A stretch of DNA of 54,222 nucleotides from an uncultured Acidiferrobacterales bacterium (GCA_964355495.1 CAYHES010000001.1:1-54222), one strand, 5' to 3'. Shown: positions 2,707 through 52,371, counted from the stretch's first letter. The notes: generated from the sequence alone by a model not told the origin. Made by a program: numbers and translations.

Positions 2707-2735
2707 TCGGTAATCCGTATTTCAAGCAGGCGGAA

Positions 2736-24058: not shown

Positions 24059-25210
24059 ATGCTGATCGATATAATGTTGTGGATGTTAGCAGCTGGTTTG
24101 TGGGGAATGTTCGGCTACCATGCATTGCTGGCAGCGTGGGGCTGGCGTTTGCAGCCGGGACCGCCGCCGGATGAATCGCTTCGTTTTGCAGTTCTAATTC
24201 CAGCACACAATGAAGAGATTAGTTTGGGGAAATTGCTGGATTCTCTGCGTTCTGCACACTACCCGAGTGTACAGCTGCTAGTTCTGGTTGTGGCCGATCA
24301 CTGTACTGACGCGACAGCGCGTGTGGCACGGGAGGCCGGTGTGGCGTGCCTGGAACGTGCAAGCGGTCCGCGCGGCAAGGCGGCTGCACTTTCTGAAGGC
24401 ATCGCCTGGTTGCGCACGCGGAATGAACGATTTGATGTGCTGGCGTTTTTTGATGCAGACAATATTGTGGATCCGGCATTCTTCCAGTATGCCGCGGGCC
24501 GAATTGCCGCCGGTGCGCCAGTTGTACAGGGTCACGTCGGCATTGCCAATCACGACGTATCCCTGTTCGCACGTCTCAACTACATCAGCGCCATGGTGGT
24601 GAATCGTTTCAAGGAGCTTGCACGCAGCCAAGCTGGGCTCACCTGCCAGTTGCGGGGACACGGAATGGCGTTCCGCCGCGATCTGGTAGATCGCTTCGAT
24701 TGGCAAGGTGATTCACTGGTAGAGGACAAAGGGATGGTGGTGCGACTGGTTCAGGCCGGCGAGCGCGTGGTGTGGGAGGATCGTGCCAAGGTCGAAAGCG
24801 TACTGCCCGTGAGTCTTCAGGAGGCTGCTGCGCAACGCCGCCGTTGGGCCGGCGGAAAGTCGTCGGTAGGGAAGGCGAGCGTACGTGCGCTCTTACGAAA
24901 GGCGTTCGTGGACCGGGATGCCGTGGCTCTGGATCTGGCGTTCGATTTCCTGATGCCTTCGTACGCGGTGCAGTTAAGTTTGGTATTCCTGGCAGTTGCC
25001 GTAGCGGCGCTGTTCGGCGGGCTGTCATCGGCGTCGTTCCAGGCGCTGCTGGTGTTAATGTTCGCCTATCTTCTGTACTTCTATCTCGGCAGCCGCCGGG
25101 GCGGTGTTCCCGGGCGCGTGTTTATGAGCTTCTTTATGGCGCCGTTCTATATTCTGTGGCGTACCTGGATACACCTAACGCGTCACTCCGGTACGCGCCG
25201 CTGGCGTTGA
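24059..25210 (+). CDS. Membrane-embedded family 2 glycosyltransferase with synthase-like motifs
   Basis: Contains VLIPAHNEE, FFDADN, LVEDKG and AAQRRRWAGG (a Q-x-x-R-W-type motif). Transmembrane segments sit at both ends. Confidence 0.75.
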   Translation: MLIDIMLWMLAAGLWGMFGYHALLAAWGWRLQPGPPPDESLRFAVLIPAHNEEISLGKLLDSLRSAHYPSVQLLVLVVADHCTDATARVAREAGVACLERASGPRGKAAALSEGIAWLRTRNERFDVLAFFDADNIVDPAFFQYAAGRIAAGAPVVQGHVGIANHDVSLFARLNYISAMVVNRFKELARSQAGLTCQLRGHGMAFRRDLVDRFDWQGDSLVEDKGMVVRLVQAGERVVWEDRAKVESVLPVSLQEAAAQRRRWAGGKSSVGKASVRALLRKAFVDRDAVALDLAFDFLMPSYAVQLSLVFLAVAVAALFGGLSSASFQALLVLMFAYLLYFYLGSRRGGVPGRVFMSFFMAPFYILWRTWIHLTRHSGTRRWR

Positions 25211-25220
25211 CAGCCATCTA

Positions 25221-27065
25221 TTAGTTGGTAAGGTCAAAGTGATCGAGGATCTCGCCATGGATATTGTAGGCAACAGCGCGCAATCCACCAGTCGTGATCT
25301 CGACGTGTAGAAATCCGTATCTGACACGAGGTTCACGTGGTGGGCGGTCGGTGCTATCGAATAGGACCGGCGCACCATCTGCGCGTAGCGCAATGAAGTC
25401 GTAGCCTTCTCCGTAATCGCGCATTCCCTGCTCATAGATTGGCGTACCGCAGGGTAAAGGGTCTATTTTTCTGTTGTGTAGGTCATAACCACCGATACCA
25501 ACGGTGACGTAAACAATCCCTTTTTCCGATTCGATCACGCGGCACTTGCTGTCGCGCACTATTTTTCCATTACCATCCACTTGTAATCGCTTACTGCGTT
25601 CATACAAATGGTCATGCCCATTGATGGCAAGCTGCACCCCATGTTTCTGCATGATCGGCGCCAAACGTTGGCGCATGCCTCGATTCTCGTGAATATCGCC
25701 ATAGGTGCCATGCGGGCCGTGAGCGAAAATAGCGTGATGATAGAATACAATGCGCCATTTCTTTTGGGTGTGGCCTAAATCGTGGTCCAGCCACGCAAGC
25801 ATGGCATCCAGTGCCGCGCTTGAGCGTCCTTGAAATTTCATGCTGTCTATCACCACAAAATGCGCATCTCCTGAGTCGAAGCTGTAATAACGCTCCTTTT
25901 CTGAGGATGGAATATCATCCGCAACGGGATTGGAGAAGGACTGCAAGAATCCATCGGGCAGTGAGTCTTTTCTGTTGTCATACTCATGATTGCCGAGCAC
26001 CGGAAAAAATGGCCGGCTTGTTAAAATGCTGTGCACACCATCGCCGCGGTCGCCTTTGCCACTTAACTGGTTGAAGAACCGCTTATCGAAATCCACGAAT
26101 GTGCCGCTGTTGTAGGCGATATCTCCCACGCCCACGATAAAGTCGTGTGGATATTGATACTTACCGGTGGTATTGCGGTTGGCAATGGCATCGCGTACCG
26201 AGCGTGGTGCACTGTATTCACTACCGGAGTCGCCAAACACAACGAAGCGTACTGCTGCCTCACTGGGTTCCGTGAGAGTCTTGAATGGTATCCCTTCCGC
26301 GATGAGCACGCCGTTGTGCGATACGTGGTAGGTGTAAGTGTTGTCAGGATCGAGGTCATCTAGCACGGCCTCGTGTTGGGTAAAATCCTGTGGCAAGGCA
26401 GTGCGTGTGGAGGGGTAACGCTGTGTAGTTGCTGTGACCCTGCTCCAATGGTGCTCGCCCGCCGTCTGGTACCACACGGCGCCTTGCCCAGGCGTGGCCG
26501 TGGCCCAAAGAATTCGCATGCGCCGCGGAGAATCGGTTTGAAGGTAGGGATAACGAAAGAGTTCGAGACGCCCGGCGGGGGCGGGCACATGAAAGCTGCG
26601 CATGATCAGCGTATCGCTGCCGGTGGTAAAGCGCCAGCGGTATTCCTGCGGCAGCGTCCGCCCACTGCGGTCTTTGACCCCGGTAGTGAGAACGGCAGTA
26701 TACGCCGTGCGGGGAGCGAGTGCAGCGGTTGGTTCAAACACAACTGTGGCACCACGCACACGTACGCTGCCTGTCACGCCTTCGAGGCGGAAACTCCCAC
26801 TGTTGATGCTAGAAACGTCGGGTGTCGCACTCAAGCGCAGGCTGATCGCAACATTGCGTGGTAGGTTTGTAGTTTCCGGCGGCGGCGAGGTAGTGATGAC
26901 ACGAAACTCCGGTGCGGGCGAGGCCGTATCGACACTAAGCTTCGGCGCCGCAAGATCTTCCTTGGATGCAGTCTTCGGTGTAACTATCGCGTCTGGGTGT
27001 GAACTTGGAGCTGCGCAGGCGCTGAGGATGAGGACGAAGGACAATGTGCAAATGAGGTATTGCAT
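25221..27065 (-). CDS. Lipoprotein: Ig-like (SbsA_Ig-type) domain plus a purple-acid-phosphatase-like metallophosphoesterase
   Basis: The lipobox is LILSAC. Metallophosphoesterase motifs present: VVFGDSG, GDIAYNSG, GNHEY, HHAIF and GHDHLYERS. Confidence 0.75.
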   Translation of the reverse strand: MQYLICTLSFVLILSACAAPSSHPDAIVTPKTASKEDLAAPKLSVDTASPAPEFRVITTSPPPETTNLPRNVAISLRLSATPDVSSINSGSFRLEGVTGSVRVRGATVVFEPTAALAPRTAYTAVLTTGVKDRSGRTLPQEYRWRFTTGSDTLIMRSFHVPAPAGRLELFRYPYLQTDSPRRMRILWATATPGQGAVWYQTAGEHHWSRVTATTQRYPSTRTALPQDFTQHEAVLDDLDPDNTYTYHVSHNGVLIAEGIPFKTLTEPSEAAVRFVVFGDSGSEYSAPRSVRDAIANRNTTGKYQYPHDFIVGVGDIAYNSGTFVDFDKRFFNQLSGKGDRGDGVHSILTSRPFFPVLGNHEYDNRKDSLPDGFLQSFSNPVADDIPSSEKERYYSFDSGDAHFVVIDSMKFQGRSSAALDAMLAWLDHDLGHTQKKWRIVFYHHAIFAHGPHGTYGDIHENRGMRQRLAPIMQKHGVQLAINGHDHLYERSKRLQVDGNGKIVRDSKCRVIESEKGIVYVTVGIGGYDLHNRKIDPLPCGTPIYEQGMRDYGEGYDFIALRADGAPVLFDSTDRPPREPRVRYGFLHVEITTGGLRAVAYNIHGEILDHFDLTN

Positions 27066-27075
27066 ATGGTTATGT

Positions 27076-28428
27076 TTATTGCGTTACCGGACAGAGTTCA
27101 TGGGCACCAATATCGGTCTTACCGCGGCAGGGACGGGTGACGCCGGTGTAATCCCGCGTTACCAGTGGCGTGTCAGTGCCTGCGTTTAACACCGGACTGT
27201 TGGGTGATGGGACTAGCGTGGTGCGATCGCTGAAGCGTGGGTCGGCCACCAGGCTGTGGGCATCGAGTCTGGTCGCCTTACGCCAAGTGTCAAAGGAGAC
27301 GCGCTCTAAGCCTTTGTCGCGCCAGGTGAAACGCACTGCGGTAGCACCGCCTGTGGTCCAGTAGAGATTGTGGTCGATGCGCAGCGTGGCTGTGTCAGTC
27401 ATGGCGTTAGAGGTGATTTTGATCAGCGGTTGGCGTGCCGAACCATAGAAAATGTTATTGCGTATTTCGATATTCGTTCCCGCCTGCTTTACTTCGGATT
27501 CGTTCGAAATGAGCACTGTGCCGTGGGTTTCGGAACCGGTGTCGTAGCAACTGTTGTTCAGAATGTGAACGTTGAATGATGAGGCAGTAGCGACGCAGGA
27601 CCAGCCGGTTTGACGAATGATATTATTGCGGATGATGCCGTCGTAGGATTCATAGCGGCCATCGCGCAGGCGGTCTGCATCCGTCGACTGACCGAGCATG
27701 ATGCCGTGCAACCAGGTGCGTTCGACCAGATTGTGCTCGAACACCGTGTTGCGGGAGTTCCCTTTGGCATACATGCCGATGGAGGGAATGTCGTGCACGT
27801 GATTGTATGCGACATGCGTTCGGTCGGCGCCGACAATATCAACGCCCTGAGCGTTTGCCCCGTTTCGCGCGTTGGGGTGATGTATTTCATTTCGAAAAAT
27901 CTCGACATCATCGGCAGTGTGCACCAGCTTGATAATGTCGGCAGAGGAGCCGTGCAGGTTGTTTCCGACGATCCGCACTCTCGGAGTATCCACCTTGATC
28001 ACGTGATCAGCGCCACCGGCGCCAAGGATCTCCAGGCCCTCAATATTCCAGTAGAGCGGTTGGCAGGGGTAATTATTCGGATTTTCTTCGTCGCAACTGG
28101 AATGATAAAAATAGAGCGTTGGGTGCCCGCTGTGTGCGGCAGTTATGACTGCCTTTTCGTTGTTATAAGGACGTAAGCTGATCCAGGCGTCAGGTGTTCC
28201 AGGGCGCTTGATCAGAACACCAGTGTAGTGCCCAGCGCGCAGCTCGATGGCGTCGCCTGGCTTGACCGCCGATACGGCCCTGGCAAGCGTCCTGAATGGG
28301 CTCCTGAGGCTATAGCCGTCGTTGGCATCGTCGCCATGGTTGTCCACGTATAATGTGGTCGCGAGCGCGGAGTGTGTAACCGTCAGAAGAGAAGCAAGTA
28401 GCAGGTGGACGACAGGGTTTTTGTTCAT
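27076..28428 (-). CDS. Secreted right-handed parallel beta-helix protein (DUF1565/pectate-lyase-fold)
   Basis: The signal peptide is MNKNPVVHLLLASLLTVTHSALA. The N-terminus TLYVDNHGDDANDGYSLRSPFRTLARAVSAVKPGDAIELRAGHY is followed by repetitive N-x-I/V coils. Confidence 0.7.
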   Translation of the reverse strand: MNKNPVVHLLLASLLTVTHSALATTLYVDNHGDDANDGYSLRSPFRTLARAVSAVKPGDAIELRAGHYTGVLIKRPGTPDAWISLRPYNNEKAVITAAHSGHPTLYFYHSSCDEENPNNYPCQPLYWNIEGLEILGAGGADHVIKVDTPRVRIVGNNLHGSSADIIKLVHTADDVEIFRNEIHHPNARNGANAQGVDIVGADRTHVAYNHVHDIPSIGMYAKGNSRNTVFEHNLVERTWLHGIMLGQSTDADRLRDGRYESYDGIIRNNIIRQTGWSCVATASSFNVHILNNSCYDTGSETHGTVLISNESEVKQAGTNIEIRNNIFYGSARQPLIKITSNAMTDTATLRIDHNLYWTTGGATAVRFTWRDKGLERVSFDTWRKATRLDAHSLVADPRFSDRTTLVPSPNSPVLNAGTDTPLVTRDYTGVTRPCRGKTDIGAHELCPVTQ

Positions 28429-28538: not shown

Positions 28539-30437
28539 TTAATTTGCCGGCATACTGAATTGGTCCATGATCACGCCATTGAGATTGTAGGTGGTGGAGT
28601 TCAGGGTGGAACCAGATATGATTACCTGGGTAAAACCATAACGTTCTGTGACCGCAGGGGTAGTGGGAAGCCCAGTACACTCTGCACCGCCCCCGCTGAA
28701 CAGTACCGCTGCGTTGTTACGGGATGCCACAAAATCATAACCGTCCCCGTAGCTGGAGACATAGTTGGTGTATTTGGCCGATCCAAACAGTGCGCTAGGA
28801 TCGGCTTGGCAATCATGCATATCCGCCCCCCCGATGCCAGTCAGGACATATATGATACCGGCGCTGGAATCAACGACATTATTGGAACCGTCGCGGATTA
28901 TTTTCCCACCGCTATCCACACGCAGGCGCTTGCTACGTTGGTAAGCGTGATCGTGGCCAAACATGACCAGTTGAACGCCCCGGTTTTGTAGGATTGGCGC
29001 AAGCTGTTGACGCATTTTTCTATTTTCTCCAATGTCACCCCAAGTTCCGTGGTTAGCATTGGAAAATATTGTGCGGTGCAAGAACACCAGACGCCATGTC
29101 TTGGTTGTGGCCGCCAAGTCAGCGTCCAACCAAGACAGCATTTGTGCGAGCCTGGTGGCAGTCGCGTCACCAGAAAACTTTTCGGAGTCAATGACGACTA
29201 AATGCGCATTCCCGGAATCAAAACTGTAGTAACGCTCAGCATCCTCGCTCGGCGCGCCAGAAGGAACCGGTAGCGAGAAAGAGCTGAGATAACCAGTGGG
29301 GGTACTGGTTGATGAATTGCCGTATTCATGGTTTCCGAGTACGGGGAAGAAGGGACGGGTAGCCAGGATGCTGTTCAGGCCTGCGCCATCATTTTTTCCA
29401 CTCAGCTGCCCAAAGAAATTCTGGTCAAACTCAGTATATGTCCCGCTGTAATACGCAATGTCGCCCACGCCTACGATAAAATCATGTGCATAGATATAAT
29501 TCCCGCTACCGTCCTTGCTGGCTATGGCATCACGCACCTGGCGTGGAGTGCTGTATTCAATACCAGAATCACCGATGACGATAAACTGGGTTGTGGCATT
29601 GCTTGCTTCTTTCATGGTTGTGAAGCCGACGTTCCTCGCCAGAACGGTACCATCATGTATTACGTTATAGGTATAACTCGTGTTTGGCAGGAGACCCGTG
29701 AGCGTGACTTCGTGTTGATAAAAGTTTGCACCAAGGCCGGTGGTGGCGCCGCTGTACAGCTGTTCACTGCAGGTGGGTTGCGTGGTCCAGACCGTATCTG
29801 AGGACAGCTTGTATTGCACCTCGCAGGTACCGGAAGTTGTCGTTGCCCAGAGAATCTTCATCCGGTTCGCTGAATCCGTTTGCAGGTAGGGATAGCGAGA
29901 AAGCAGGCTGGCCCCGCTTGCGGTGGGAATTTCTGTTGTGCTCCCACCTCCGCCGCCCCCCGCACTATAACTAATCGAAATCGTGTCGGTCCTGGTGTTA
30001 TTCGCCGCGTCCCGCGCCGTGACCGTAATGACATTGGTGCCGCTCTGCAGGGCAATGCTGCCCACGCTCCAGCTTGTGGTGCCACTGGCGGTGCCGCTAC
30101 CACCCAGATTGTTGGACCAACTAACCTGTGTGACACCGACATTGTCCGAGGCCGTGCCGGCCAGGGTGGTGAGGCTGGCGCTACTGCTGGTGTAGGTGGT
30201 GGACGATGTGGGGCCGGAGATGGTGATGTTGGGGGCTGTGGTGTCGCTGCCGCTACCACCACCGCTACCACCACCGCCGCTTGGAGGAGGGGCTGTTCCC
30301 GTGTCGCCGGAATTCGCACTAATCGTGTCGCCTGCGCTACAGGCATGCAGAAATAGTGTGGATAGCAGCACCATCGCAATGAGTCGAAGCTGGTCTGTCC
30401 AAGAAGGATGCTTTTTCAGGTATAGTGCGCTGGGCAT
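28539..30437 (-). CDS. Lipoprotein: Gly/Ser linker plus Ig-like domain plus purple-acid-phosphatase-like metallophosphoesterase (paralog of 25221-27065)
   Basis: The lipobox is LFLHAC. Metallophosphoesterase motifs present: IVIGDSG, GDIAYYSG, GNHEY and GHDHAYQRS. An AAGGA ribosome-binding site 6 nt upstream favours ATG 30437; the longest ORF reaches 30542. Confidence 0.75.
   Translation of the reverse strand: MPSALYLKKHPSWTDQLRLIAMVLLSTLFLHACSAGDTISANSGDTGTAPPPSGGGGSGGGSGSDTTAPNITISGPTSSTTYTSSSASLTTLAGTASDNVGVTQVSWSNNLGGSGTASGTTSWSVGSIALQSGTNVITVTARDAANNTRTDTISISYSAGGGGGGSTTEIPTASGASLLSRYPYLQTDSANRMKILWATTTSGTCEVQYKLSSDTVWTTQPTCSEQLYSGATTGLGANFYQHEVTLTGLLPNTSYTYNVIHDGTVLARNVGFTTMKEASNATTQFIVIGDSGIEYSTPRQVRDAIASKDGSGNYIYAHDFIVGVGDIAYYSGTYTEFDQNFFGQLSGKNDGAGLNSILATRPFFPVLGNHEYGNSSTSTPTGYLSSFSLPVPSGAPSEDAERYYSFDSGNAHLVVIDSEKFSGDATATRLAQMLSWLDADLAATTKTWRLVFLHRTIFSNANHGTWGDIGENRKMRQQLAPILQNRGVQLVMFGHDHAYQRSKRLRVDSGGKIIRDGSNNVVDSSAGIIYVLTGIGGADMHDCQADPSALFGSAKYTNYVSSYGDGYDFVASRNNAAVLFSGGGAECTGLPTTPAVTERYGFTQVIISGSTLNSTTYNLNGVIMDQFSMPAN
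29940..30384. repeat. 445-bp direct repeat, copy A (5' coding module of the phosphoesterase gene)
   Basis: It appears identical to 31798-32242 at a constant offset of 1858 nt. All overlapping ORF translations in three frames are letter-identical across it. The flanks diverge immediately at both ends. Confidence 0.9.
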
Positions 30438-30513
30438 GGCTGGTCCTTTAGCTTTCGTGGTTTTCATATGCTTCTGGCTATGCCTGATGCAGGCGGGATA
30501 ACTGTTCGCGGCA

Positions 30514-32310
30514 CTACTGTACAAGCAGATCCGCAAGTTCATTAATGTAGTCTTCGATGGCTGTATACCCTGATGGCATCACGGTATTGTGGTCGTCCAC
30601 GTACGGACTTAGCCCGTGCGCGGATTCCCAGGCGTCCGCCATGCCGTCGTTGTCAGCATCCACAGGCGCGCTCCCTGGCGTCAGGCCGGTCATCAGACCT
30701 GTGATCGTTGGAACTGCGGCACCCCAGCTACCGGTACGATCAAGGGTATCCTGAACAGATTTGTTGGTGACGATGTCACGCGGCCAGGCGCCTGCCTTGT
30801 TAAGCACGGTGTTGTAGGCCGATGTCGCCGTTTCAGTCGTTACCGCAACGTACCCGGTGTAGGTCGAGAAATCGTGTTCCGTGGCAACTCGATACGGGCT
30901 CTCGGGTAGACCCAAACTTCCGAACGTCGGATGTAATAGCGGGGTGGCCCAGGGATTACCCACAACACCTACGTAGTCGCCCGGGTCGTCGATGTAGTTA
31001 TCGCGCAGGTAGTAGCGCAGATCAGGTGCTACGCCGCCATTTTCATCGTCAAAATAGAACGGATACAACGCAGCACTCGGACCCTGTTTGTAATAGTTGC
31101 CGATGATATTGAAATGCCCAGATGCAGGATTGTGGTGAATGAATCCGTGCCGCACGTTGTAAGAAACGTTGTTGCGGATGTCCGCCGGACCGTTGGCGAT
31201 CGCCGGATTGCGATCGCTGTTGTGCGCAAACAAGTTGTGGTGGACGGAAATGCGCCAGCCATCTGGCCCGTTGAGCAACCCAAAATTATGGCCCGACGCA
31301 CCGAGAGTGGAGCTCTGCTCAATTGTCGAATACTGGACGGTCACATCGTCCGCCTCGTACAGGTCGAATGTCTCATCCGCGCCAAACGCAACCGAGATGT
31401 GATCAAAAATTGCGAGACGGTTGAGAGAAAACTGCATCCCGTCATAGTCGCTCGAGGCGCCCTCTGCGGCGCTATAGGCCCTCGGACGTATCCGCACATG
31501 ACGAATGATAATGTTGTCGATGCCAGTGCTGTAGTTGCTATACAGACGTCCGCGTATCGTGATGCCTCCACCCGGCGCTGTTTGACCGGCAATCGTCAAG
31601 TTACCGTGTGGTATGTAAATATCGCTATCGATAACCCCGCTGACTGCGAAGACCACGATGCGCGGCACTGTCAAGTTAAGCGCAGCTTGCAGGCTGCCAG
31701 TGCCACTGGCATTCAAGTTGGTCACTTTCACGACTTGACCGCCACGACCGCCTGTAGCGGACGCGCCGAAACCTTCTGCGCCAGGGAAGGCCCTCACGCT
31801 CCCACCTCCGCCGCCCCCCGCACTATAACTAATCGAAATCGTGTCGGTCCTGGTGTTATTCGCCGCGTCCCGCGCCGTGACCGTAATGACATTGGTGCCG
31901 CTCTGCAGGGCAATGCTGCCCACGCTCCAGCTTGTGGTGCCACTGGCGGTGCCGCTACCACCCAGATTGTTGGACCAACTAACCTGTGTGACACCGACAT
32001 TGTCCGAGGCCGTGCCGGCCAGGGTGGTGAGGCTGGCGCTACTGCTGGTGTAGGTGGTGGACGATGTGGGGCCGGAGATGGTGATGTTGGGGGCTGTGGT
32101 GTCGCTGCCGCTACCACCACCGCTACCACCACCGCCGCTTGGAGGAGGGGCTGTTCCCGTGTCGCCGGAATTCGCACTAATCGTGTCGCCTGCGCTACAG
32201 GCATGCAGAAATAGTGTGGATAGCAGCACCATCGCAATGAGTGCGGTACGTGAAAAGTTATGCAGGCTCGCGTCGAGGTTACTCGGTGAGTGGACAGGCT
32301 CCATAATCAT
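30514..32310 (-). CDS. Lipoprotein: the same Gly/Ser linker and Ig-like module plus a pectate-lyase-like (PL1-type) beta-helix domain
   Basis: Contains FPGAEGFGASATGGRGGQVVKVTNLNASGTGSLQAAL and IIIRHVRIRPR, with a C-terminal DADNDGMADAWE. The start is placed at about 32310 from GGAG spacing; the longest ORF reaches 32493. Confidence 0.7.
   Translation of the reverse strand: MIMEPVHSPSNLDASLHNFSRTALIAMVLLSTLFLHACSAGDTISANSGDTGTAPPPSGGGGSGGGSGSDTTAPNITISGPTSSTTYTSSSASLTTLAGTASDNVGVTQVSWSNNLGGSGTASGTTSWSVGSIALQSGTNVITVTARDAANNTRTDTISISYSAGGGGGGSVRAFPGAEGFGASATGGRGGQVVKVTNLNASGTGSLQAALNLTVPRIVVFAVSGVIDSDIYIPHGNLTIAGQTAPGGGITIRGRLYSNYSTGIDNIIIRHVRIRPRAYSAAEGASSDYDGMQFSLNRLAIFDHISVAFGADETFDLYEADDVTVQYSTIEQSSTLGASGHNFGLLNGPDGWRISVHHNLFAHNSDRNPAIANGPADIRNNVSYNVRHGFIHHNPASGHFNIIGNYYKQGPSAALYPFYFDDENGGVAPDLRYYLRDNYIDDPGDYVGVVGNPWATPLLHPTFGSLGLPESPYRVATEHDFSTYTGYVAVTTETATSAYNTVLNKAGAWPRDIVTNKSVQDTLDRTGSWGAAVPTITGLMTGLTPGSAPVDADNDGMADAWESAHGLSPYVDDHNTVMPSGYTAIEDYINELADLLVQ
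31798..32242. repeat. 445-bp direct repeat, copy B (5' coding module of the pectate-lyase-like gene)
   Basis: See copy A. The repeat encodes IAMVLLSTLFLHACSAGD...GGGGSGGGSGS...Ig-like domain...SAGGGGGGS. Confidence 0.9.
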
Positions 32311-32579
32311 ATACATTCTCCGTTCGCGATCGTGCTGCGGCATCAATTTCTCCAGATTCCCAAGAATTATTTCTAAATTAAGGGGTAGTGAATTACGTTT
32401 GGACTTTGATTTTATATGAAAAATAGCATGATCAATCAGGCGACGTAGCGAAAACATGACTTGTGGGGTATGCATGCTGACAAGTGGCGGCATAGTTTCA
32501 TTGGTTAAGAATCAACTGCGACAACTGACCGTTCATCCGCTAGAATAAGCCGTGTTTCGGTAGCCTGAGTATTCTGCCC

Positions 32580-33359
32580 ATGCGTTCGGTTGCGACAGAA
32601 CTTCTGCATCTGTTCCTCTCAATTCCATTGATCATAATACTTGCCTTGGCCGTGCTGACGCTGATGGCGTTTCGTGAGCACGCAGCGGTGGGCCTGCGTC
32701 GTTGGCGTTTTATCCTGCCTTTGTTTGCATTTGCTGTATATCTGGTGAGCGCGCCGGTGGTGTCGAATACTGCGGTGCGCTGGATCGAGTCTGGCTATGC
32801 GGTGCCCAGGCAGGCCGAGACGGTGACGCCCAAGAAGCCTGTTATTCTGGTATTGACGGCAGGCTGGTTGCGCACGACGGAGCGGGGCTATGAATTAAAA
32901 CTATCCGAAGCTGGTTGGGAGCGCACCCATGCTGCGGTGCTGTTGTGGAAACGCCATGGCGGGATCTTAGTGTTTTCTGGTGCACCGACACCGGATGGGA
33001 ACGATTCAGCCGCTGCCGGCATGGCGCGTGTGGCACAACAACTGGGCGTACCAGCAACCGCAATCAAGATCGAGCCGGCATCACTCAACACGTATGAAAA
33101 CTTCCTATTCTCAAAACCGTTACTCGATCAGCACGGGGGTGAAATCTGGCTGGTCACCAGCGCGCTACACATGCCGCGCGCAATGGCGGTGTCTAAGAAG
33201 GTGGGGGTATCTGCGATCGCCTATCCGTGTGATTTTCACGGCGAGGAGCGTCTCAATTGGCGGCTCTGGTTACCCAGCAATGCCGGACCGGCTATGCTGG
33301 AAGAAGCACTACACGAATTGTTGGGCATCCTGCAATACCGTCTGCGCGGATGGGCCTGA
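32580..33359 (+). CDS. YdcF/ElyC-family (DUF218) protein
   Basis: It has N-terminal transmembrane segments, then VILVLTAG, LVFSGA, NTYENF and WLVTSALHMPRA. Confidence 0.75.
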   Translation: MRSVATELLHLFLSIPLIIILALAVLTLMAFREHAAVGLRRWRFILPLFAFAVYLVSAPVVSNTAVRWIESGYAVPRQAETVTPKKPVILVLTAGWLRTTERGYELKLSEAGWERTHAAVLLWKRHGGILVFSGAPTPDGNDSAAAGMARVAQQLGVPATAIKIEPASLNTYENFLFSKPLLDQHGGEIWLVTSALHMPRAMAVSKKVGVSAIAYPCDFHGEERLNWRLWLPSNAGPAMLEEALHELLGILQYRLRGWA

Positions 33360-34750: not shown

Positions 34751-35899
34751 ATGACTAAACCGCAACGAATCTACTACGCCGATGCCATGCGGAGTATTTT
34801 GATGCTATTAGGCGTCGTAGTGCACTCTTCGTATGTTTATAACACCAGCACCAACTGGACTATTCACGATGCTCAAGTTTCGCCATTTTTCGATGTGATA
34901 ATTGGTTTCCTCTCGATGTTTCGAATGCCGGCATTTTTTCTCATATCCGGCTTCTTTTGTCATATGACGTTAACCCGCTATGGTGTGCTACGCTTTCTAA
35001 AAGTTCGTTTAAAACGAATTGCGGTACCGTTGATCACGACAGCGATCATCGTGAATGGCATACAAAATTACATATTGGAGCGGTACCACGATGGGCATCG
35101 AGACGCCATCGAGTTGCTCCTAAGCGCGTCGTATTGGCTCGGTGGCAAGTGGGTGTCTCATTTATGGTTTCTGAACGACCTGCTTGTCTTCTTTTTGGTC
35201 GTTGCGATTGTCTATGCCTTGCTGAATCGCCCGCACGGATGGCTGGGGCTGCGGTCGCTGAAATGGTTGGCCACCAGCGGACTTTATGTGTTGCTCTTAC
35301 CTGCGATTTTGCTTGTCGCCGATTTTATCGGTAATCGGTTTCCCCTTGTGATTACGGAGGCCGCACCGTTTCTTGATTTCTCCGAATTGACCCACTACGG
35401 AGTGTTCTTTACGTTTGGTTTCCTTATGGGCGCCTACCCCAAGCTGATGGACGACTTTCCGAATCCCCGGATTTGGGCTTTGATGCTAATGTGTTTTTTC
35501 ATCCTGCTAAAGCTAGTTTTCGAGGCCGATCAGTATCATGGCATCGGCGCAAAAATGGTGTTCCATTATTTTGATGCGTATATCAGCTGGCACCTGTGCA
35601 TAATATGCTTTTACCTATTTAGAAAGTATTTCAATTCGGCATCGAAACAATTTGCGTACTTGTCTGACGCCTCGTATTCGATTTATTTATTCCATCATAT
35701 TTTGGTCGTTGTCATAGGGATAGCTTTGATTCCGCTAACTTTCAACATATACCTCAAGTTCTTCACGCTAATGCTGACCGCCGGGGCTATCAGTCTTGCA
35801 ATACACCATTTCGGAGTGCTGCGCTCACCGGTGTTGCGGTTATTATTCAACGGCAAAACACCCATGGAATCCGATAAGTCAATCAAAGCCTACTCATGA
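34751..35899 (+). CDS. Acyltransferase family 3 (OpgC-like) membrane protein
   Basis: Contains RIYYADAMRSILMLLGVVVHS. It is polytopic. Confidence 0.75.
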   Translation: MTKPQRIYYADAMRSILMLLGVVVHSSYVYNTSTNWTIHDAQVSPFFDVIIGFLSMFRMPAFFLISGFFCHMTLTRYGVLRFLKVRLKRIAVPLITTAIIVNGIQNYILERYHDGHRDAIELLLSASYWLGGKWVSHLWFLNDLLVFFLVVAIVYALLNRPHGWLGLRSLKWLATSGLYVLLLPAILLVADFIGNRFPLVITEAAPFLDFSELTHYGVFFTFGFLMGAYPKLMDDFPNPRIWALMLMCFFILLKLVFEADQYHGIGAKMVFHYFDAYISWHLCIICFYLFRKYFNSASKQFAYLSDASYSIYLFHHILVVVIGIALIPLTFNIYLKFFTLMLTAGAISLAIHHFGVLRSPVLRLLFNGKTPMESDKSIKAYS

Positions 35900-43258: not shown

Positions 43259-45232
43259 ATGTGTGGTATCGCTGGGATTCTCAACCTGACGGCCAATCGC
43301 CCACCGAGTGAAACCGAACTCGGTGCAATGATTGGTCAACTGCATCACCGTGGCCCGGATGGCTACGGCTATTTTTCGGATACACAGGTTGGCCTTGCTC
43401 ATGCGCGACTCAGCATCATCGATATTGCCGGCGGCAAGCAGCCGATCCACAACGAAGACCGGACCATCTGGGTCAGTTTCAACGGCGAAATCTTCAATTA
43501 CATCGAACTGCGCGCGATTCTTGAACAACAGGGTCATCGTTTCTACACGCACTCCGACACCGAAGTTATCGTGCACCTGTATGAACAGCACGGCGATGAC
43601 TTTGTCCAGCACCTGAACGGCCAGTTCGCGATCGCGCTCTGGGACCAGCAGCGCCGGCGCCTGGTGCTGGCCCGAGACCGCGCCGGTATCCGCCCACTGT
43701 TCTACACGCAGACGCGCAGCCGGTTGCTGTTTGCCTCCGAGGTCAAGGCACTGTTCGTGCATTCCGAACTTCCGCGCCGACTCAATCTTGAGGCGCTTGC
43801 CCAGGTTTTCACCTACTGGTCGCCGCTCGCGCCAGCGACGGTTTTCGAGGGCGTCACGGCGCTGCCTCCAGGACACATCTTGGTGGCAGAAAACGGTCGC
43901 ATCCAGACGCGGTGTTACTGGGACTGGTTATTTCCCGAACCGCCCTTGCCCAAAGAACGGCCTGCCGCAGAATATGCAGAAGAGTTGCGTGCTTTGCTGA
44001 TCGATGCGGTGAAGTTGCAGTTGCGCTCGGACGTCCCGGTAGGTGCATACTTGAGCGGCGGGCTCGATTCTTCGATTATCACCTCGTTGATCAAGAACTT
44101 TACGGATGTGCCACTGCGTACATTCTCGGTAACGTTTGATGACGCAGAATATGACGAGAGCATCTTCCAGCAGGAACTGGTGGATTACCTCGATACCCAG
44201 CACACCGCGTTACGTTGTACCACGGCGGATATTTGTGATGCGTTCCCGAAGGTGATCTGGCACACCGAGACCCCGATCGTGCGCACGGCGCCGACGCCGC
44301 TCATGCTGCTGTCCGCCAAGGTGCGCGCTGAGGGCTACAAGGTGGTGCTGACCGGGGAAGGGGCGGACGAGGTGTTCGGTGGCTACGACCTGTTCAAGGA
44401 GGCCAAGATCCGGCGCTTCTGGGCGCGCCAGCCACACTCAAAAATGCGCCCGCGTATCCTCGAACGGCTCTATCCGTATCTCAAGCATTCGCCTGCATCT
44501 GGGCGAGCGTTTACCGAAAATTTCTTCAGCCAGGGTATGGAGCACAAGGACCGGGCGTACTTCTCCCATATTCCTCGCTGGACGACGACAAGACGTATTG
44601 CCCAATTTTTCTCGCCGGAGATGCAGCGCACAGTGAGTGGCTGGGACCCGTATGCTGCCATTATGCAAACACTGCCGCCAGGTATCGAACGCTGGATTCC
44701 GCTTGGCCGCGACCAGTATGTCGAGGCGCACACCCTGATGGCCGGCTACCTGCTCTGCTCCCAGGGCGATCGCGTGGCCATGGCCAACTCCATCGAGGGG
44801 CGTTTTCCATTTCTGGATCACCGCGTGATCGAATTCGGCAACCGCCTGCCGTCGCGTTGCAAACTGATGGGCCTCACCGAGAAATATATTTTGAAGAAAT
44901 CTATGACTGGATTGTTGCCAGAATCGGTGCGTACACGCACCAAGCAACCCTACCGCGCACCCGACAGCCAGAGCTTCTTCCGCAACGGGGTGGCGGCAGA
45001 TTATGTGGCAGAACTGTTCAGCGAACGGCGCCTGCGCGAGGCGGGCTACTTCGATCCGCGCGTGGTGGCCAAGCTTTACGAGAAGTGCCGTGCCGGACGC
45101 GCCATCGGCTTCGCTGACAACATGGCCTTCGTCGGCATCCTGTCCACCATGCTGGTGGATGAGCAGTTCATCCGGCCGGTTGCGTTGACTGGGACGATCG
45201 CTCGGCCTTTTGCCAAGCAGATTTCGGCTTAG
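43259..45232 (+). CDS. Asparagine synthase (glutamine-hydrolysing) family amidotransferase (exosortase-A-associated amidotransferase type)
   Basis: It has the MCGIAGIL Ntn-glutaminase start and the synthetase-domain PP-loop-like motif YLSGGLDSS. Confidence 0.9.
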   Translation: MCGIAGILNLTANRPPSETELGAMIGQLHHRGPDGYGYFSDTQVGLAHARLSIIDIAGGKQPIHNEDRTIWVSFNGEIFNYIELRAILEQQGHRFYTHSDTEVIVHLYEQHGDDFVQHLNGQFAIALWDQQRRRLVLARDRAGIRPLFYTQTRSRLLFASEVKALFVHSELPRRLNLEALAQVFTYWSPLAPATVFEGVTALPPGHILVAENGRIQTRCYWDWLFPEPPLPKERPAAEYAEELRALLIDAVKLQLRSDVPVGAYLSGGLDSSIITSLIKNFTDVPLRTFSVTFDDAEYDESIFQQELVDYLDTQHTALRCTTADICDAFPKVIWHTETPIVRTAPTPLMLLSAKVRAEGYKVVLTGEGADEVFGGYDLFKEAKIRRFWARQPHSKMRPRILERLYPYLKHSPASGRAFTENFFSQGMEHKDRAYFSHIPRWTTTRRIAQFFSPEMQRTVSGWDPYAAIMQTLPPGIERWIPLGRDQYVEAHTLMAGYLLCSQGDRVAMANSIEGRFPFLDHRVIEFGNRLPSRCKLMGLTEKYILKKSMTGLLPESVRTRTKQPYRAPDSQSFFRNGVAADYVAELFSERRLREAGYFDPRVVAKLYEKCRAGRAIGFADNMAFVGILSTMLVDEQFIRPVALTGTIARPFAKQISA

Positions 45233-45249
45233 ATCGGGATTGGCACGCT

Positions 45250-46779
45250 ATGCTCCTGCATCAATTTCTTGAAGCGAGTAGCCAGCAGCTGCCGGACAAG
45301 GCTGCGCTGGTGTGCGACGGCCAACGCTACAGTTATGCCCAGATCGACCAAATGGCGACCGAACTCGCCGTGTTCCTGCAGCAACGTGGTGTGCGGCGTG
45401 ATGATCGGGTTGCCATCTTTATGGACAACTCTGTTGAGACGGTAGTTAGCATCTATGCCGCACTCAAGGCGGGCGCCGTGTTCATGCCGGTCAATCCGCT
45501 GACCAAGCATGACAAGCTCGCTTACCTGCTCAATGATTCACGCGCTAGCGCGTTGATAACGCATGCCGCGCTGCATGAAGTGTTCAGCGGCGCCCTCGCG
45601 CACAATGAGAGCGTGCACAGCTGCATCGTCATTGGAGAACTGCGTGTTGGGGGCACGGATAAGCGCCTGTTGCGCTATGCCAGCGTACAGGATGTGCCGG
45701 GAGCTCTCGTGGCCCCGGGTAGTATTGACCAGGATCTCGCTGCCATTATCTATACTTCCGGGTCCACCGGTGATCCGAAAGGCGTGATGCTGACTCACCT
45801 GAACATGGTAAGCGCCACGAACTCGGTGAGCAGCTATCTCGGGTTGCAGAATGAAGATGTTGTCTTGTGCGTGCTGCCGCTCGCATTCGACTACGGCCTG
45901 TATCAGGTTCTAATGGGCTTCAAGCTCGGGGCGACCGTGGTCGTGGAGCGCTCGTTCGCTTTCCCGGTAAAGGTATTGGAGGTAATGGCGCGAGAACGCG
46001 TCACGGTCCTGCCGGGCGTGCCGACAATCTTCTCACTACTTATGAACATCAAGACCCTGTCGCATCATGATCTGGCGTCACTGCGCATGATCACCAATAC
46101 AGCCGCAGCGCTCTCCGAGCAGCATATTAAGGATTTGCGGGAGCTGTTTCCGCAGGCGCAGTTGTTTTCCATGTATGGCCTTACCGAGTGCAAGCGTGTG
46201 ACTTACCTTCCGCCGGAACAACTCGAGGCACGCCCGACCAGCGTAGGTCGAGGCATGCCTAACCAGGAAGTCTGGCTGGTGGATGAGGGCGGTAACCGGC
46301 TGCCAAACGGCAGCACCGGTGAACTGGTGATTCGCGGTAGCAATGTCATGCGCGGCTACTGGGAAAAGCCGGACGAGACGGCCAAGCGACTCAGGCCCGG
46401 CCCGAATCCGGGAGAGATGTTGCTGTACTCTGGCGATATTTTCCGTACCGATGACGAGGGCTATCTCTATTTCGTAGCACGCAAGGACGACGTAATTAAG
46501 AGCCGCGGAGAGAAGGTGAGTCCGCGTGAGGTGGAGAATGTGCTCTACAGTATGGAGGGTGTACAGGAAGTGGCTGTAATAGGAGTGACAGACCCGGTTC
46601 TTGGGCAGGCCGTAAAAGCCTTTATAGCATTGCGCCCGGGATTCAGTTACTCAGAGCGCGATGTCATCAAATATTGTCTTGGCCATCTGGAAAGCTTTAT
46701 GGCGCCCAAGCAGGTAGTATTTGTCGATGCCTTGCCCAAAACTGACACCGGCAAGATAAAAAAGTCTGGACTCGCCTGA
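45250..46779 (+). CDS. AMP-forming acyl-CoA/acyl-carrier ligase (ANL superfamily, exosortase-A-associated ligase type)
   Basis: Contains IIYTSGSTGDPKGV, YGLTE, GDIFRTDDEGYLYFVARKDDVIK and a C-terminal TGKIKK. Confidence 0.9.
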   Translation: MLLHQFLEASSQQLPDKAALVCDGQRYSYAQIDQMATELAVFLQQRGVRRDDRVAIFMDNSVETVVSIYAALKAGAVFMPVNPLTKHDKLAYLLNDSRASALITHAALHEVFSGALAHNESVHSCIVIGELRVGGTDKRLLRYASVQDVPGALVAPGSIDQDLAAIIYTSGSTGDPKGVMLTHLNMVSATNSVSSYLGLQNEDVVLCVLPLAFDYGLYQVLMGFKLGATVVVERSFAFPVKVLEVMARERVTVLPGVPTIFSLLMNIKTLSHHDLASLRMITNTAAALSEQHIKDLRELFPQAQLFSMYGLTECKRVTYLPPEQLEARPTSVGRGMPNQEVWLVDEGGNRLPNGSTGELVIRGSNVMRGYWEKPDETAKRLRPGPNPGEMLLYSGDIFRTDDEGYLYFVARKDDVIKSRGEKVSPREVENVLYSMEGVQEVAVIGVTDPVLGQAVKAFIALRPGFSYSERDVIKYCLGHLESFMAPKQVVFVDALPKTDTGKIKKSGLA

Positions 46780-46826
46780 GCGAGCCGCAAGTGATCCAAC
46801 GTGATCGAGGAAAAGGGGAAACCATA

Positions 46827-47078
46827 ATGCAAGACATCAAGTCACAGGTGCGCACGTACATTTTCGATAATTTCATCATGGCCGGCGACCCCGGCGATTT
46901 GCAGGATGGCGACTCTTTCATGGAGCGGCATATTCTCGATTCCACTGGCTTCATTGAGTTGATCACGTTTCTCGAGGAAGCATTCGGTATCAAGGTTGAG
47001 GATGACGATATGGTTCCGGAGAATCTTGATAGCCTCGACAAGATAGATATTTTCCTTCGCAAGAAGAAGGCGAGCTGA
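46827..47078 (+). CDS. Acyl carrier protein
   Basis: It is 83 aa. The phosphopantetheine-site context is HILDSTGFIELITFLEE. A Gly/A-rich ribosome-binding site lies upstream of ATG 46827. Confidence 0.75.
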   Translation: MQDIKSQVRTYIFDNFIMAGDPGDLQDGDSFMERHILDSTGFIELITFLEEAFGIKVEDDDMVPENLDSLDKIDIFLRKKKAS

Positions 47079-47116
47079 ATTGCCGACCTCCGAAACTCAC
47101 CCGACAGGAGCTGGCT

Positions 47117-48106
47117 GTGACCTCAACATTGCTTAATGCCCGCGTGCTGGACATCGACTGTTCTGCTGAAGTAGACCGCATTGCCAAACGGCTGGTGGAA
47201 ATTGTCGCGCGTACGCTGCACCGCCGTGGCATGATTATCGCACTGTCCGGCGGTGTGGACAGTTCGGTGTGCGCGGCGCTTGCGGTTCGCGCCCTTGGGC
47301 CAGGCAAGGTGTTTGGTCTGATGTTGCCGGAAAAGGAGTCCTCCTCGACCAGCCTGACGCGTGGCAAACTGATTGCCGAACAGCTTGACATCAGTTATGC
47401 GGTTGAGAATATCGGACCTACGCTTGAGGCAATTGGTTGTTACCGCTGGCGCGACGAAGCCATGCGCGTGGTGTTTCCTGAATACGGGGCGGACTGGAAG
47501 AGCAAAATTGCGATTGCGGGGGGCGCGCAGGGGCGCATCAACTACTTCAAACTGGTCGTGCAATCACCGAGTGGCGAAATCCAGGAGACGCGTCTTCCGC
47601 TTAAGGAATATCTGCAGATCGTAGCCGCCACCAACTACAAGCAGCGCATACGCAAGACAATCGAATACTTCCATGCTGACCGGCTGAACTACGCGGTGAT
47701 CGGTACACCGAATCGCCTTGAGTACGACCAGGGGTTCTTCGTCAAGAACGGCGATGGATCGGCGGACCTCAAACCGATTGCCCATCTCTACAAAACACAG
47801 GTCTACGCACTCGCCAGGTATTTTGGATTGCCAGCGGAAATCTGTTCCGCCGCGCCCACCACGGATACCTACAGCATGCAGCAGGGGCAGGACGAATTCT
47901 ATTTCGCACTGCCGTACGACAAGATGGACGTTGCATTGTGGGCGCACAATCACGCAGTGCCGGCCAACGCGCTCGCGGCTCATCTCGGAATCAGCGATGC
48001 CCAGGCAGATTTCATTTATAAGGATATCGATGCCAAGCGGCAGACCACGCGCTATTTGCATGCGAAGCCGGTTCTTGTGGAGCCTGTAACCGAGATCACC
48101 GTGTGA
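47117..48106 (+). CDS. NAD synthetase (NadE)-like PP-loop ATP pyrophosphatase without a glutaminase domain
   Basis: Contains the PP-loop motif ALSGGVDSSVCAAL and, later, DGSADLKPIAHLYKTQVYALARYFGLP. It has a GTG start with an AGGAG ribosome-binding site. Confidence 0.75.
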   Translation: MTSTLLNARVLDIDCSAEVDRIAKRLVEIVARTLHRRGMIIALSGGVDSSVCAALAVRALGPGKVFGLMLPEKESSSTSLTRGKLIAEQLDISYAVENIGPTLEAIGCYRWRDEAMRVVFPEYGADWKSKIAIAGGAQGRINYFKLVVQSPSGEIQETRLPLKEYLQIVAATNYKQRIRKTIEYFHADRLNYAVIGTPNRLEYDQGFFVKNGDGSADLKPIAHLYKTQVYALARYFGLPAEICSAAPTTDTYSMQQGQDEFYFALPYDKMDVALWAHNHAVPANALAAHLGISDAQADFIYKDIDAKRQTTRYLHAKPVLVEPVTEITV

Positions 48107-49125: not shown

Positions 49126-50406
49126 TTAGAGACGCCAAATTCTGAGACCGGCGGCACGCAGTGCAGCCGTGTCGAAAGCAGACTTTACGTCAATGAAGCA
49201 TCCCTTGGCAGCAATCTTCTTCGCTAACCTGTCGGGACTCATCTTCAGGAAATCCGAGTGCGCGACCGCGGCGACCATGGCATCCGCCACTGGCAGATCA
49301 TCCCACGACACCAACTCAATGCCGTATTCATGGTGGGCCTCTTCCTTGAGCGGCACCGGATCGTGCACGAATACCTCGATGCCATACGTCCGCAGCTCAG
49401 CGATCACGTCGATGACGCGCGAGTTGCGTAGGTCCGGCACGTTCTCCTTGAAAGTGAGGCCAAGGACGTTGACCTTGGCGCCTTTGATGGAGCTACCGGA
49501 GGCGATCATCTTCTTGACGGTTTGCTCGGCAATGAACTTGCCCATGTTGTCGTTGATGCGCCGTCCGGCTAGGATCACTTCCGGGTGGTAACCGATCATC
49601 TCCGCCTTGTACGTGAGATAGTAGGGGTCGACGCCAATGCAGTGACCGCCGACCAGGCCGGGGCGGAAGGGCAGGAAGTTCCACTTGGTGCCGGCGGCCT
49701 GCAGTACTTCCAGCGTGTCGATACCGAGCTTGTTGAAGATCAGCGCCAGCTCGTTCATGAGCGCGATATTGAGATCGCGCTGGGTGTTTTCGATGACCTT
49801 GGCGGCTTCGGCCACGGCGATGCTGGAAGCGCGGTGCACCCCGGCTGTGATAACGGAACTGTAGAGATTGGCGACAGCGTCCAGGGTAGCGGCGTCGTCA
49901 CCCGATACGACTTTCACAATCCTCGTGAGCGTGTGTTCCTTGTCGCCCGGATTGATGCGCTCGGGTGAATAGCCGATGTGAAAATCCTTTTTCCACTTCA
50001 GGCCAGAATTTTGTTCGAGCACCGGAATGCAGACCTCCTCGGTGGCGCCTGGATAGACGGTTGACTCGTAGATCACGATCGCGCCCTTTTTCATGTTCTG
50101 GCCGACCGTGCGGCTGGCGCCCACGAGAGGGCTGAAGTCGGGCAGATGGGCGTTGTCGATCGGGGTGGGGACGGCAACAATGATGTAGTCGGCAGCAGCG
50201 AGCGCAGTGGGATCGGTGGTGGCCTTGAGTTTCGTGGCTGCGCGCAGCGCCTCACTCGACACTTCACCGGTGGGGTCTACGAAGTTCTGATAGCTGCGTA
50301 CCTTTTCGGTGCTCAGGTCGAAGCCGATGGTTTCGCGGATCTTTCCGAATTCCACGGCGAGCGGCAGGCCGACATATCCGAGCCCGACAACGGCAATAGT
50401 GCTCAT
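49126..50406 (-). CDS. Nucleotide-sugar 6-dehydrogenase, TviB/WbpO/CapL-like (UDP-N-acetylhexosamine dehydrogenase)
   Basis: MSTIAVVGLGYVGLPLAVEFGK matches the TviB/WbpO N-terminus. GGHCIGVDP carries the catalytic Cys. The start is taken at ATG 50406 rather than the longest ORF. Confidence 0.8.
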   Translation of the reverse strand: MSTIAVVGLGYVGLPLAVEFGKIRETIGFDLSTEKVRSYQNFVDPTGEVSSEALRAATKLKATTDPTALAAADYIIVAVPTPIDNAHLPDFSPLVGASRTVGQNMKKGAIVIYESTVYPGATEEVCIPVLEQNSGLKWKKDFHIGYSPERINPGDKEHTLTRIVKVVSGDDAATLDAVANLYSSVITAGVHRASSIAVAEAAKVIENTQRDLNIALMNELALIFNKLGIDTLEVLQAAGTKWNFLPFRPGLVGGHCIGVDPYYLTYKAEMIGYHPEVILAGRRINDNMGKFIAEQTVKKMIASGSSIKGAKVNVLGLTFKENVPDLRNSRVIDVIAELRTYGIEVFVHDPVPLKEEAHHEYGIELVSWDDLPVADAMVAAVAHSDFLKMSPDRLAKKIAAKGCFIDVKSAFDTAALRAAGLRIWRL

Positions 50407-50576
50407 TTTAGAATATCCCCGAAAGATTGACTGCTGAAGAGGCTGTTTGTTTCGGGCCAGTTTAACCGAAGAAATTGCGGTATTCCAACGCCGGCAGCAT
50501 GTCACCACATGGTAACCTGCATATACTATGAATTCGTGACGGCGAATGGTGTAATCCAACAAGGCGAGGTGGCACG

Positions 50577-52273: not shown

Positions 52274-52371
52274 ACGCTTGAGGCTTGGCACGAACCAGGC
52301 CACAGTCAACGCAGCGCATTTCAATGCGACCACTCGTGCGCAGCCGCACGCATTATTGAGTGCCAACACCT

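Follow-up and report, generated by a model that had tools for sequence, protein, structure and literature searches.

Two adjacent enzyme genes that begin with an exactly repeated 445-nt signal-peptide and Ig-like module in a predicted exopolysaccharide locus of an uncultured Acidiferrobacterales bacterium

How do two neighboring genes with unrelated catalytic domains come to begin with exactly the same DNA? This question is raised by a stretch of 54,222 nt from an uncultured Acidiferrobacterales bacterium (GCA_964355495.1, CAYHES010000001.1:1-54222; the whole stretch is called the window here), in which a putative lyase gene (gene 2) and a putative phosphoesterase gene (gene 1) share a 445-nt 5' coding module. 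An original prediction, made from the sequence of the window, had called the two segments base-for-base identical at an offset of 1858 nt, with abrupt divergence on both sides, and had proposed very recent gene conversion or domain shuffling. Identity and divergence were both confirmed by self-comparison. We consider it probable that the module was copied very recently and non-reciprocally, by duplication or conversion, between the adjacent enzyme genes. The elements in question are as follows.

31798..32242, minus strand: repeat copy 2 (R), the 5' coding module of the upstream gene (gene 2), with exact 445-nt identity to 29940-30384
29940..30384, minus strand: repeat copy 1 (R), the module again, at the 5' end of the downstream gene (gene 1)
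30514..32493, minus strand: gene 2, a putative lipoprotein-type PL1-like beta-helix lyase of 659 residues (longest open reading frame and public gene call)
28539..30437, minus strand: gene 1, a putative lipoprotein-type metallophosphoesterase of the purple acid phosphatase kind, 632 residues (also 632 residues in the public gene call)

Exact-match extension at offset 1858 gave a maximal exact block of 445 nt with 0 mismatches (29940-30384 and 31798-32242), and a separate repeat search of the window returned the same pair. Beyond the block, identity at this offset was 26-27% on the left (100-300 nt) and 24-25% on the right, which is the random level. An exact repeat of 445 nt in 54 kb cannot be a product of chance, and a long identical tract in one genome with unrelated flanks (445/445 nt) is an exact segmental repeat. 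Both copies lay in the same codon phase of two minus-strand open reading frames (ORFs) and encoded the same 148 residues, LIAMVLLSTLFLHAC...SYSAGGGGGGS. The earlier picture of two genes with unrelated catalytic domains was retained, while their strand had to be corrected to minus. The copies are 1.4 kb apart within one operon, with 1413 bp of unique DNA between them. No third copy was detected in the window, either as DNA (20-mers) or as protein (tblastn), and the repeat search of the window found no inverted repeat; the copies are direct repeats. An exact 50-nt probe from the module had zero matches in the JGI metagenome contigs. A protein search with the module only, capped at 8000 candidates, was dominated by generic Ig-repeat proteins, and the window's own proteins were not among the matches listed, so that its weight on the question of further copies is small. 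The order of the locus can be written A-R-C-B-R-D, where R is the module, C the lyase, D the phosphoesterase, and A and B the following upstream and spacer segments.

32243..32579, minus strand: segment A, upstream region, 5' untranslated region, start and n-region of gene 2, orthologous to the region upstream of the Ig-phosphoesterase gene of a related locus (L054)
30514-31797, minus strand: segment C, catalytic part of gene 2, a beta-helix domain of 427 residues
30385..30513, minus strand: segment B, a unique 129-nt spacer from the stop of gene 2 to repeat copy 1, with the ribosome-binding site, ATG and n-region (MPSALYLKKHPSWTDQLR) of gene 1
28539-29939, minus strand: segment D, catalytic part of gene 1, a metallophosphoesterase

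Considering that the source is a metagenome assembly and that assemblers classically err at exact repeats that exceed the k-mer in length, the duplication might be a chimeric or duplicated join made by the assembler. The two-copy topology was tested on independent metagenomic assemblies. In a 49-kb ENA contig (L001) from a Hainich groundwater sample, 21 kb including both copies were 100% identical to the window. The population is represented in the Hainich H52 assembly ERZ1292616 and in runs ERR3858110, ERR3858112, SRR34292218 and SRR34292221. The Logan assemblies use k=31 and do not traverse exact repeats longer than k; there, two contigs (L002 and L003) terminated at window position 29969, which is 30 nt (k-1) inside copy 1. 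A unitig of 1473 nt (L047), which had been predicted beforehand from k and was then retrieved via its expected partial protein, occurred in 7 samples and corresponded to window 31827..30355, thus starting 30 nt inside copy 2 and ending at the same depth in copy 1. In the de Bruijn graph, the repeat was thus entered from two contexts and exited into two contexts. Given these unitig ends and the bridging unitig, any genome with the lyase segment has the repeat on both its sides. Moreover, the complete gene 2 was present on four longer contigs in the same order, and both ORFs were intact and in phase. On the unitig breakpoints and the spanning contigs we rejected an assembly artefact, which is extremely improbable; the repeat is present in the real genome and is not an assembler product.

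What, then, does the repeated DNA encode? The original prediction had named a signal-peptide core with lipobox, a Gly/Ser linker, an Ig-like domain and a poly-Gly hinge, and translation, an AlphaFold model and a Foldseek match (1ug9) all agreed with this. The 148 residues comprise the h-region of a signal peptide (LIAMVLLSTLFLHAC) with the lipobox Cys, a disordered Gly/Ser/Pro tether of about 30 residues, the Ig-like domain and a GGGGGGS hinge. In the model, residues 1-50 were disordered and residues 51-140 formed a beta-sandwich with a predicted local distance difference test score >96; eight strands were predicted, and the strand at residues 96-98 has just 3 residues. The best Foldseek match in the PDB was glucodextranase 1ug9 (E=2.7e-5, root-mean-square deviation 2.2 over 94 columns), the PKD domains of ColG were also matched, and the beta-sandwich fold agreed with solved Ig-family members. 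The module thus has the fold of the Ig spacers of surface enzymes (glucodextranase domain B, Big_7 and PKD-like) and likewise stands between a membrane or surface anchor and a catalytic domain. Unlike members of the glucodextranase domain B and Big_7 families, it scored below gathering in Pfam (PF09136, Glucodextran_B, 24.3 vs 27 bits; PF17957, Big_7, 19.2 vs 24.1 bits), and a spacer role is what its position would predict. The lipobox was borne out in part. In L-H-A-C the Cys and the Ala at -1 fit the pattern [LVI][ASTVI][GAS]C, but His is not among the usual residues at -2, and the lipoboxes of homologues are canonical (LSAC, LVGC, LTAAC). The signal of gene 1 reads MPSALYLKKHPSWTDQLR-LIAMVLLSTLF-LHAC, and the n-region of gene 2 is weakly charged. 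Both enzymes would be exported and are probably lipid-anchored on a stalk near the polysaccharide that they process, as far as their sequences tell. The proposal that the module is dedicated to matrix enzymes is consistent with similar polysaccharide loci, where this Ig module stands at the head of lyases, Pel9A-like enzymes and phosphoesterases.

The two catalytic partners were then assigned. For gene 2 the probable true start is at 32310-32316 (MYMIMEP) with GGAG upstream, and it aligns with the start of the L054 orthologue. Its catalytic part matched two structures in the PDB (phmmer), 9buj (5e-23), which is PfPL1, a lyase of PL1 subfamily 2 (PMC11229556), and 6fi2 (8e-8), which is VexL, the Vi-antigen-specific depolymerase of Achromobacter (PMC6003464). 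The suggested pectate-lyase-like character was therefore upheld as a PL1-like beta-helix, but PF00544 reached 21.0 bits, below its cut-off of 24. The NCBIfam model PelZ gave 79.9 bits, far below its cut-off of 840, and the lyase homologues are named 'pectate lyase family protein' in their sources. Many homologues of the lyase domain (P0142, P0143, P0157, P0171 and others) were fused to GH114 (PF03537, endo-alpha-1,4-polygalactosaminidase) and FN3 domains, for example in Candidatus Thiodiazotropha. These fusions point to amino-sugar polysaccharides rather than plant pectin as substrates of the lyase family.

For gene 1, the predicted phosphoesterase was supported by PF00149 (41.7 bits, cut-off 21.5) and PF16656 (39.2 bits, cut-off 30), and purple acid phosphatases of the PDB were matched at 1e-12. 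All five metal-ligand motifs sought (GDxG, GDxxY, GNH(D/E), VxxH and GHxH) were readable in the translation as IGDSG, VGDIAY, LGNHEY, VFLH and FGHDH. Gene 1 thus shares both domains (Pur_ac_phosph_N and Metallophos) and the five motifs with the purple acid phosphatases 6git and 1kbp; unlike these, it is bacterial and would be a lipoprotein-type protein within an exopolysaccharide (EPS) locus, and among its relatives fusions to beta-helix polysaccharide-active domains are common. The ATG of gene 1 (30437) is preceded, at 6 nt, by AAAGGA, and the n-region reads MPSALYLKKHPSWTDQLR. On the minus strand between gene 2 and gene 1 no promoter- or terminator-like site was found, and the overall counts equaled the shuffle expectation.

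Full-length protein searches for relatives of the two genes returned a tight clade (74-84% amino acid identity) in which the same parts are rearranged. P0123 (1061 residues, 3 independent assemblies) is a single ORF with lipoprotein signal, Ig, lyase and phosphoesterase. P0125 (1107 residues, single ORF) has lyase and phosphoesterase as P0123 but a different N-terminal module. P0242 (619 residues, locus L054) has signal, Ig and phosphoesterase without lyase, and P0124 and P0122 have signal, one or two Ig domains and the lyase alone. Among wider collections, a scan of GTDB genomes gave relatives of the locus that were all at most 60% identical and covered the lyase domain only, and a DUF218-anchored scan of JGI metagenomes gave zero relatives of the locus.

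The fused relatives raise one specific history for the repeat, in which a fused ancestor (signal peptide, Ig, lyase, phosphoesterase) was split by a stop, start signals and a module copy of its own placed in the linker. This gene fission is a specific version of the preferred explanation, with a fixed direction. In the DNA alignment to the ORF of L048, window 32111-30521 corresponded to L048 2947-4540 and window 29930-28540 to L048 4569-5980. The aligned parts are adjacent in L048, 28 nt apart, and the window has about 590 nt extra there (the stop, the 129-nt segment B and repeat copy 1). This extra DNA falls exactly at the interdomain linker: LLVQ and the stop, then GGGGGGS-TTEIP, in the window vs LLVSNGDPVTTTIP in P0123. 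Two fused relatives (P0123 and P0125) have the same domain order with a linker of only 6-8 residues, and a split product would need its own signal peptide, which the module copy provides. However, for the upstream region, the phosphoesterase and the Ig part of R alike, the closest or syntenic counterpart is in L054, which lacks the lyase. The lyase and phosphoesterase trees also disagree, which suggests that the lyase arrived separately, and segment B, with a well-formed ribosome-binding site and a positively charged n-region, lies outside the repeat and had no source in the window or in 56 fetched loci (blastn-short, tblastn). In the trees, fused forms are interspersed with split ones and do not set the ancestral state. 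Fission is unlikely.

The lyase-free relative raises a second history. Synteny of L054 with the window extends from a DUF218 gene across the intergenic region into the start region of gene 2, and the Ig-phosphoesterase of L054 comes next. Window 33361-32458 was 79.6% identical to L054 1805-2698 (blastn), the start region GAACGG(A/G)GAATG was conserved between window gene 2 and L054 (global alignment), and the Ig-plus-phosphoesterase stretch (L054 2954-4680) was 75.6% identical to the window. The Ig part of R was closest to the Ig of L054 (83% of nucleotides and 85% of residues) vs 73% and 68% for P0123. So L054 has the arrangement A-R-D where the window has A-R-C-B-R-D. An A-R-D ancestor might have gained a lyase segment of another lineage or locus behind the module, with R duplicated then or soon after. 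The identities to P0125 fit such a cassette insertion, since the window's lyase (84.4%) is closer to that of P0125 than their phosphoesterases are to each other (75.4%). The phosphoesterase of P0125 was closest to P0242 (80.7%), the neighbor-joining (NJ) bootstraps were 96, 94 and 90, and these mismatched identities and trees indicate mosaic domain histories. The NJ trees gave no fusion-versus-fission polarity, because fused, split and lyase-free forms interleave and the deep nodes are weak.

Also in keeping with an insertion, the 24-36 kb block differs from the 43-48 kb genes in its relatives. In a collection of 15 billion proteins, no relatives of at least 90% amino acid identity were found for the genes at 24059-28428, 28539-33359 and 34751-35899, except for two short fragments that matched one acyltransferase. 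Such relatives do exist for the genes at 43259-48106 (Asn-synthase-like, NAD-synthase), several of them on contigs of 55-74 kb. By this pattern the enzyme block (24-36 kb) is typical of a strain-specific, variable and recombination-prone part of a polysaccharide locus. Against an insertion, there is no simple mechanism for a perfect 445-bp flanking duplication unless the modules of donor and recipient were already identical, and no donor was found. A foreign origin of the lyase segment judged by base composition was rejected, its content of guanine plus cytosine, overall (GC) and at third codon positions (GC3), being unremarkable. Equally, a window-like ancestor could have given rise to L054 by pop-out. 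We regard the insertion, like fission, as a doubtful account of the locus.

A third history leaves the order of the genes old. Neighboring genes in related loci share an N-terminal module that has diverged to 63-78% identity (74% in L053, 63-77% in L051), and a head module common to neighboring genes appears from these sequences to be a recurring design in related loci. The head module of the lyase or fused gene was repeated at the beginning of a neighbor gene, or inside one, at L053 422-570 and 3783-3931 and at L051 1082-1375, 6551-6844 and 6845-7138. In a syntenic Logan contig (L055 1-160; Ig-Pel9A-like, Big_5-phosphoesterase, Pel9A-like), the assembly breaks inside the Ig core (…WSNSLGGSG…), and the Ig module could be an exact repeat in that genome too. 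The window might then hold an old two-gene arrangement whose paralogous N-terminal modules were kept, or were just made, identical by gene conversion, that is, by concerted evolution. The architecture is indeed old and common by the 63-78% identities, the start region of gene 1 (B) looks evolved, with a signal-peptide n-region and a good ribosome-binding site, and the repeat ends match the limits of the shared module. On the other hand, the identity is perfect to both ends and random beyond them, where a conversion tract between paralogues of about 75% identity should stop within the homology and leave diverged edges. No other two-copy locus of this type was found, and the module repeats of the related loci, at only 63-78%, show no such homogenization. 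This history is possible and somewhat less doubtful than fission or insertion, but we do not favor it.

The date of the copying was estimated from the identity itself. With 0 differences in 445 nt, each copy has accumulated at most about 0.0034 substitutions per site (5% level), vs a Jukes-Cantor distance of 0.19-0.30 to the nearest orthologous locus (L054), from which we infer that the copying was very recent. The comparison with relatives fits the very recent gene conversion or domain shuffling first proposed. In the explanation that we prefer, a very recent non-reciprocal copy, one module would have been copied onto, or in front of, the other gene by segmental duplication or gene conversion in the operon, in an enzyme family that has repeatedly fused, split and exchanged the Ig module, the lyase and the phosphoesterase.

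Several points weigh against this explanation. The direction and the number of copying events are not fixed by the data, all of which are metagenomic. The repeat stops inside the signal peptide, and the two n-regions and start codons are unrelated; a simple duplication of a gene's 5' end would copy the start too, which argues against one simple event. Conversion of diverged paralogues normally leaves diverged homologous edges, of which none were seen. Segment B has no detectable source. Furthermore, lipoprotein status is read from the L-H-A-C pattern with its unusual His at -2, and the enzyme substrates are guesses from family membership and gene neighborhood.

What could the repeat do now? 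The original prediction had named it a substrate for deleting or inverting the intervening 1.4 kb. Deletion, or amplification, is compatible with the direct orientation, but inversion between the copies was ruled out, as the repeats are direct and no inverted repeats were found. The unit of deletion also had to be revised: it is not the intervening 1.4 kb but 1858 bp, the 1413 bp of unique DNA plus one repeat copy. A single RecA-type crossover between the R copies would lose these 1858 bp (C-B-R) and leave A-R-D, and an unequal crossover would amplify R-C-B. L054 has just this A-R-D arrangement, as one crossover between the two repeats of the window would produce. We think it improbable, more so than any of the three histories above, that the identical modules work as a recombination hinge through which the population gains, loses or amplifies the lyase cassette while the promoter, signal and Ig head in front of it stay constant. 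If they did, the window would be a live intermediate between the fused (signal peptide-Ig-lyase-phosphoesterase) and the lyase-free (signal peptide-Ig-phosphoesterase) forms, and a natural example of splitting a secreted bifunctional enzyme, in which the downstream half is given the upstream export module.

Four co-oriented minus-strand genes form the run in which the repeat lies. Gene 2 and then gene 1 are the first, and the others follow.

27076..28428, minus strand: next operon gene, a Pel9A-like beta-helix protein of 450 residues with an ordinary signal peptide (PF13229 44.2 bits, PF22842)
25221..27065, minus strand: last operon gene, a paralogous putative lipoprotein phosphoesterase of 614 residues with a Big_5 N-terminal module (PF13205, PF16656, PF00149; P0262)

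In its catalytic part, the last of these shared 52% identity with gene 1. The Pel9A-like protein was fused to Ig and phosphoesterase in P0244 (1016 residues; signal peptide-Ig-Pel9A-like-phosphoesterase) and to phosphoesterase in P0253 and P0278. Both beta-helix/phosphoesterase pairs are therefore fused elsewhere ('Rosetta-stone'), which suggests that the two enzyme types work together.

The surrounding genes included an initiating sugar transferase, a Wzx-like flippase, a Wzy-like polymerase, several glycosyltransferases, three polysaccharide deacetylases, acyltransferases, a UDP-GlcNAc 2-epimerase and Poly_export. The chain-length determinant of the XrtA system, TIGR03007, scored 352 bits vs a cut-off of 278.85, and TIGR03015, TIGR03018, TIGR03098 and TIGR03108 gave strong matches, each below its own cut-off. 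No exosortase gene was identified within the 54-kb window. By its predicted genes, the window is an EPS locus, probably of the XrtA/PEP-CTERM type. A TviB-like UDP-GlcNAc C6 dehydrogenase and a TviC/GalE-like epimerase (49126-51506) lie in the same locus as the VexL-related lyase, which hints at an EPS with a 2-acetamido uronic acid, like Vi antigen, and the lyase could plausibly act on a uronic-acid polymer. A large APH-family phosphotransferase-like protein (10958-12778) was also present at L055 13338-13497, both being EPS loci with phosphoesterases; its conservation may mean that a phosphorylated polymer or precursor is the substrate of the phosphoesterases.

Other features of the window were observed outside the enzyme block. 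An AbiEi antitoxin / AbiEii nucleotidyltransferase toxin pair (1909-3623) lies beside a phospholipase A1 gene, upstream of the EPS locus; AbiEi/AbiEii is a type IV toxin-antitoxin or abortive infection system. Three further direct repeats were seen. One of 98 nt (51409-51506 and 52360-52457, 86%) repeats the 3' end of the epimerase, including its stop, about 950 nt downstream, and the 52360-52457 copy is probably a gene remnant. Another of 65 nt (387-451 and 573-637, 95%, 186 nt apart) is at or just upstream of a patatin-like phospholipase ORF (544-1293). The third, of 130 nt (75% identity, 794 nt apart), has 8151-8280 within a hexapeptide-repeat acyltransferase gene (7673-8344) and 8945-9074 just upstream of a GDSL-lipase-like gene, and looks like a diverged paralogous fragment.

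Taken as a whole, the locus is instructive, but as domain shuffling with recent duplication it is an ordinary example. In close relatives the same three blocks are fused, split or have one missing, and here the module is still letter-perfect, so that the window offers a dated snapshot of shuffling. It shows a route by which a downstream domain may become an independent exported protein, namely by acquiring a copy of the upstream signal and stalk. The repeat is also a hazard for assembly and binning of the locus, and a place where deletion or amplification can be expected.

Several known systems resemble parts of the locus. VexL and PfPL1 resemble the window's putative lyase in the predicted PL1-type beta-helix of the catalytic domain, and, as for VexL, a polysaccharide locus with TviB/TviC-like 2-acetamido uronic acid genes is the setting. 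Unlike VexL, to which its similarity is distant (8e-8), the window protein has a putative lipoprotein-type signal and an Ig stalk, and its locus would be classed with the Wzx/Wzy and XrtA type instead of the ABC-transporter-dependent one. Polymorphic toxin loci (the 'orphan' modules of contact-dependent growth inhibition (CDI) and Rhs systems) have a constant N-terminal region and exchangeable C-terminal cassettes. Likewise, the window has a constant 5' module before alternative 3' domains, and recombination can change the domain that follows the first promoter and start. In contrast to CDI/Rhs, both window genes are complete and probably co-expressed, they encode polysaccharide enzymes and not toxins, and there are no immunity genes; we found no evidence that the window locus uses such switching. 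The tufA/tufB pair of Salmonella is the classic case of gene conversion between paralogous genes. As there, an identical tract is shared by two genes of one genome within diverged surroundings. Unlike in tufA/tufB, sharing is confined to the N-terminal export/Ig module in front of unrelated catalytic parts, the tract ends are abrupt and the copies are 1.4 kb apart in one operon; here conversion is a candidate mechanism. Finally, as with 'Rosetta-stone' genes, domains that are neighbors in the window are one polypeptide in P0123, P0125 and P0244. To our knowledge, the role of neither enzyme type has been characterized in XrtA-type EPS loci, and this comparison gives a Rosetta-stone link between beta-helix lyase-type and purple-acid-phosphatase-type enzymes there.

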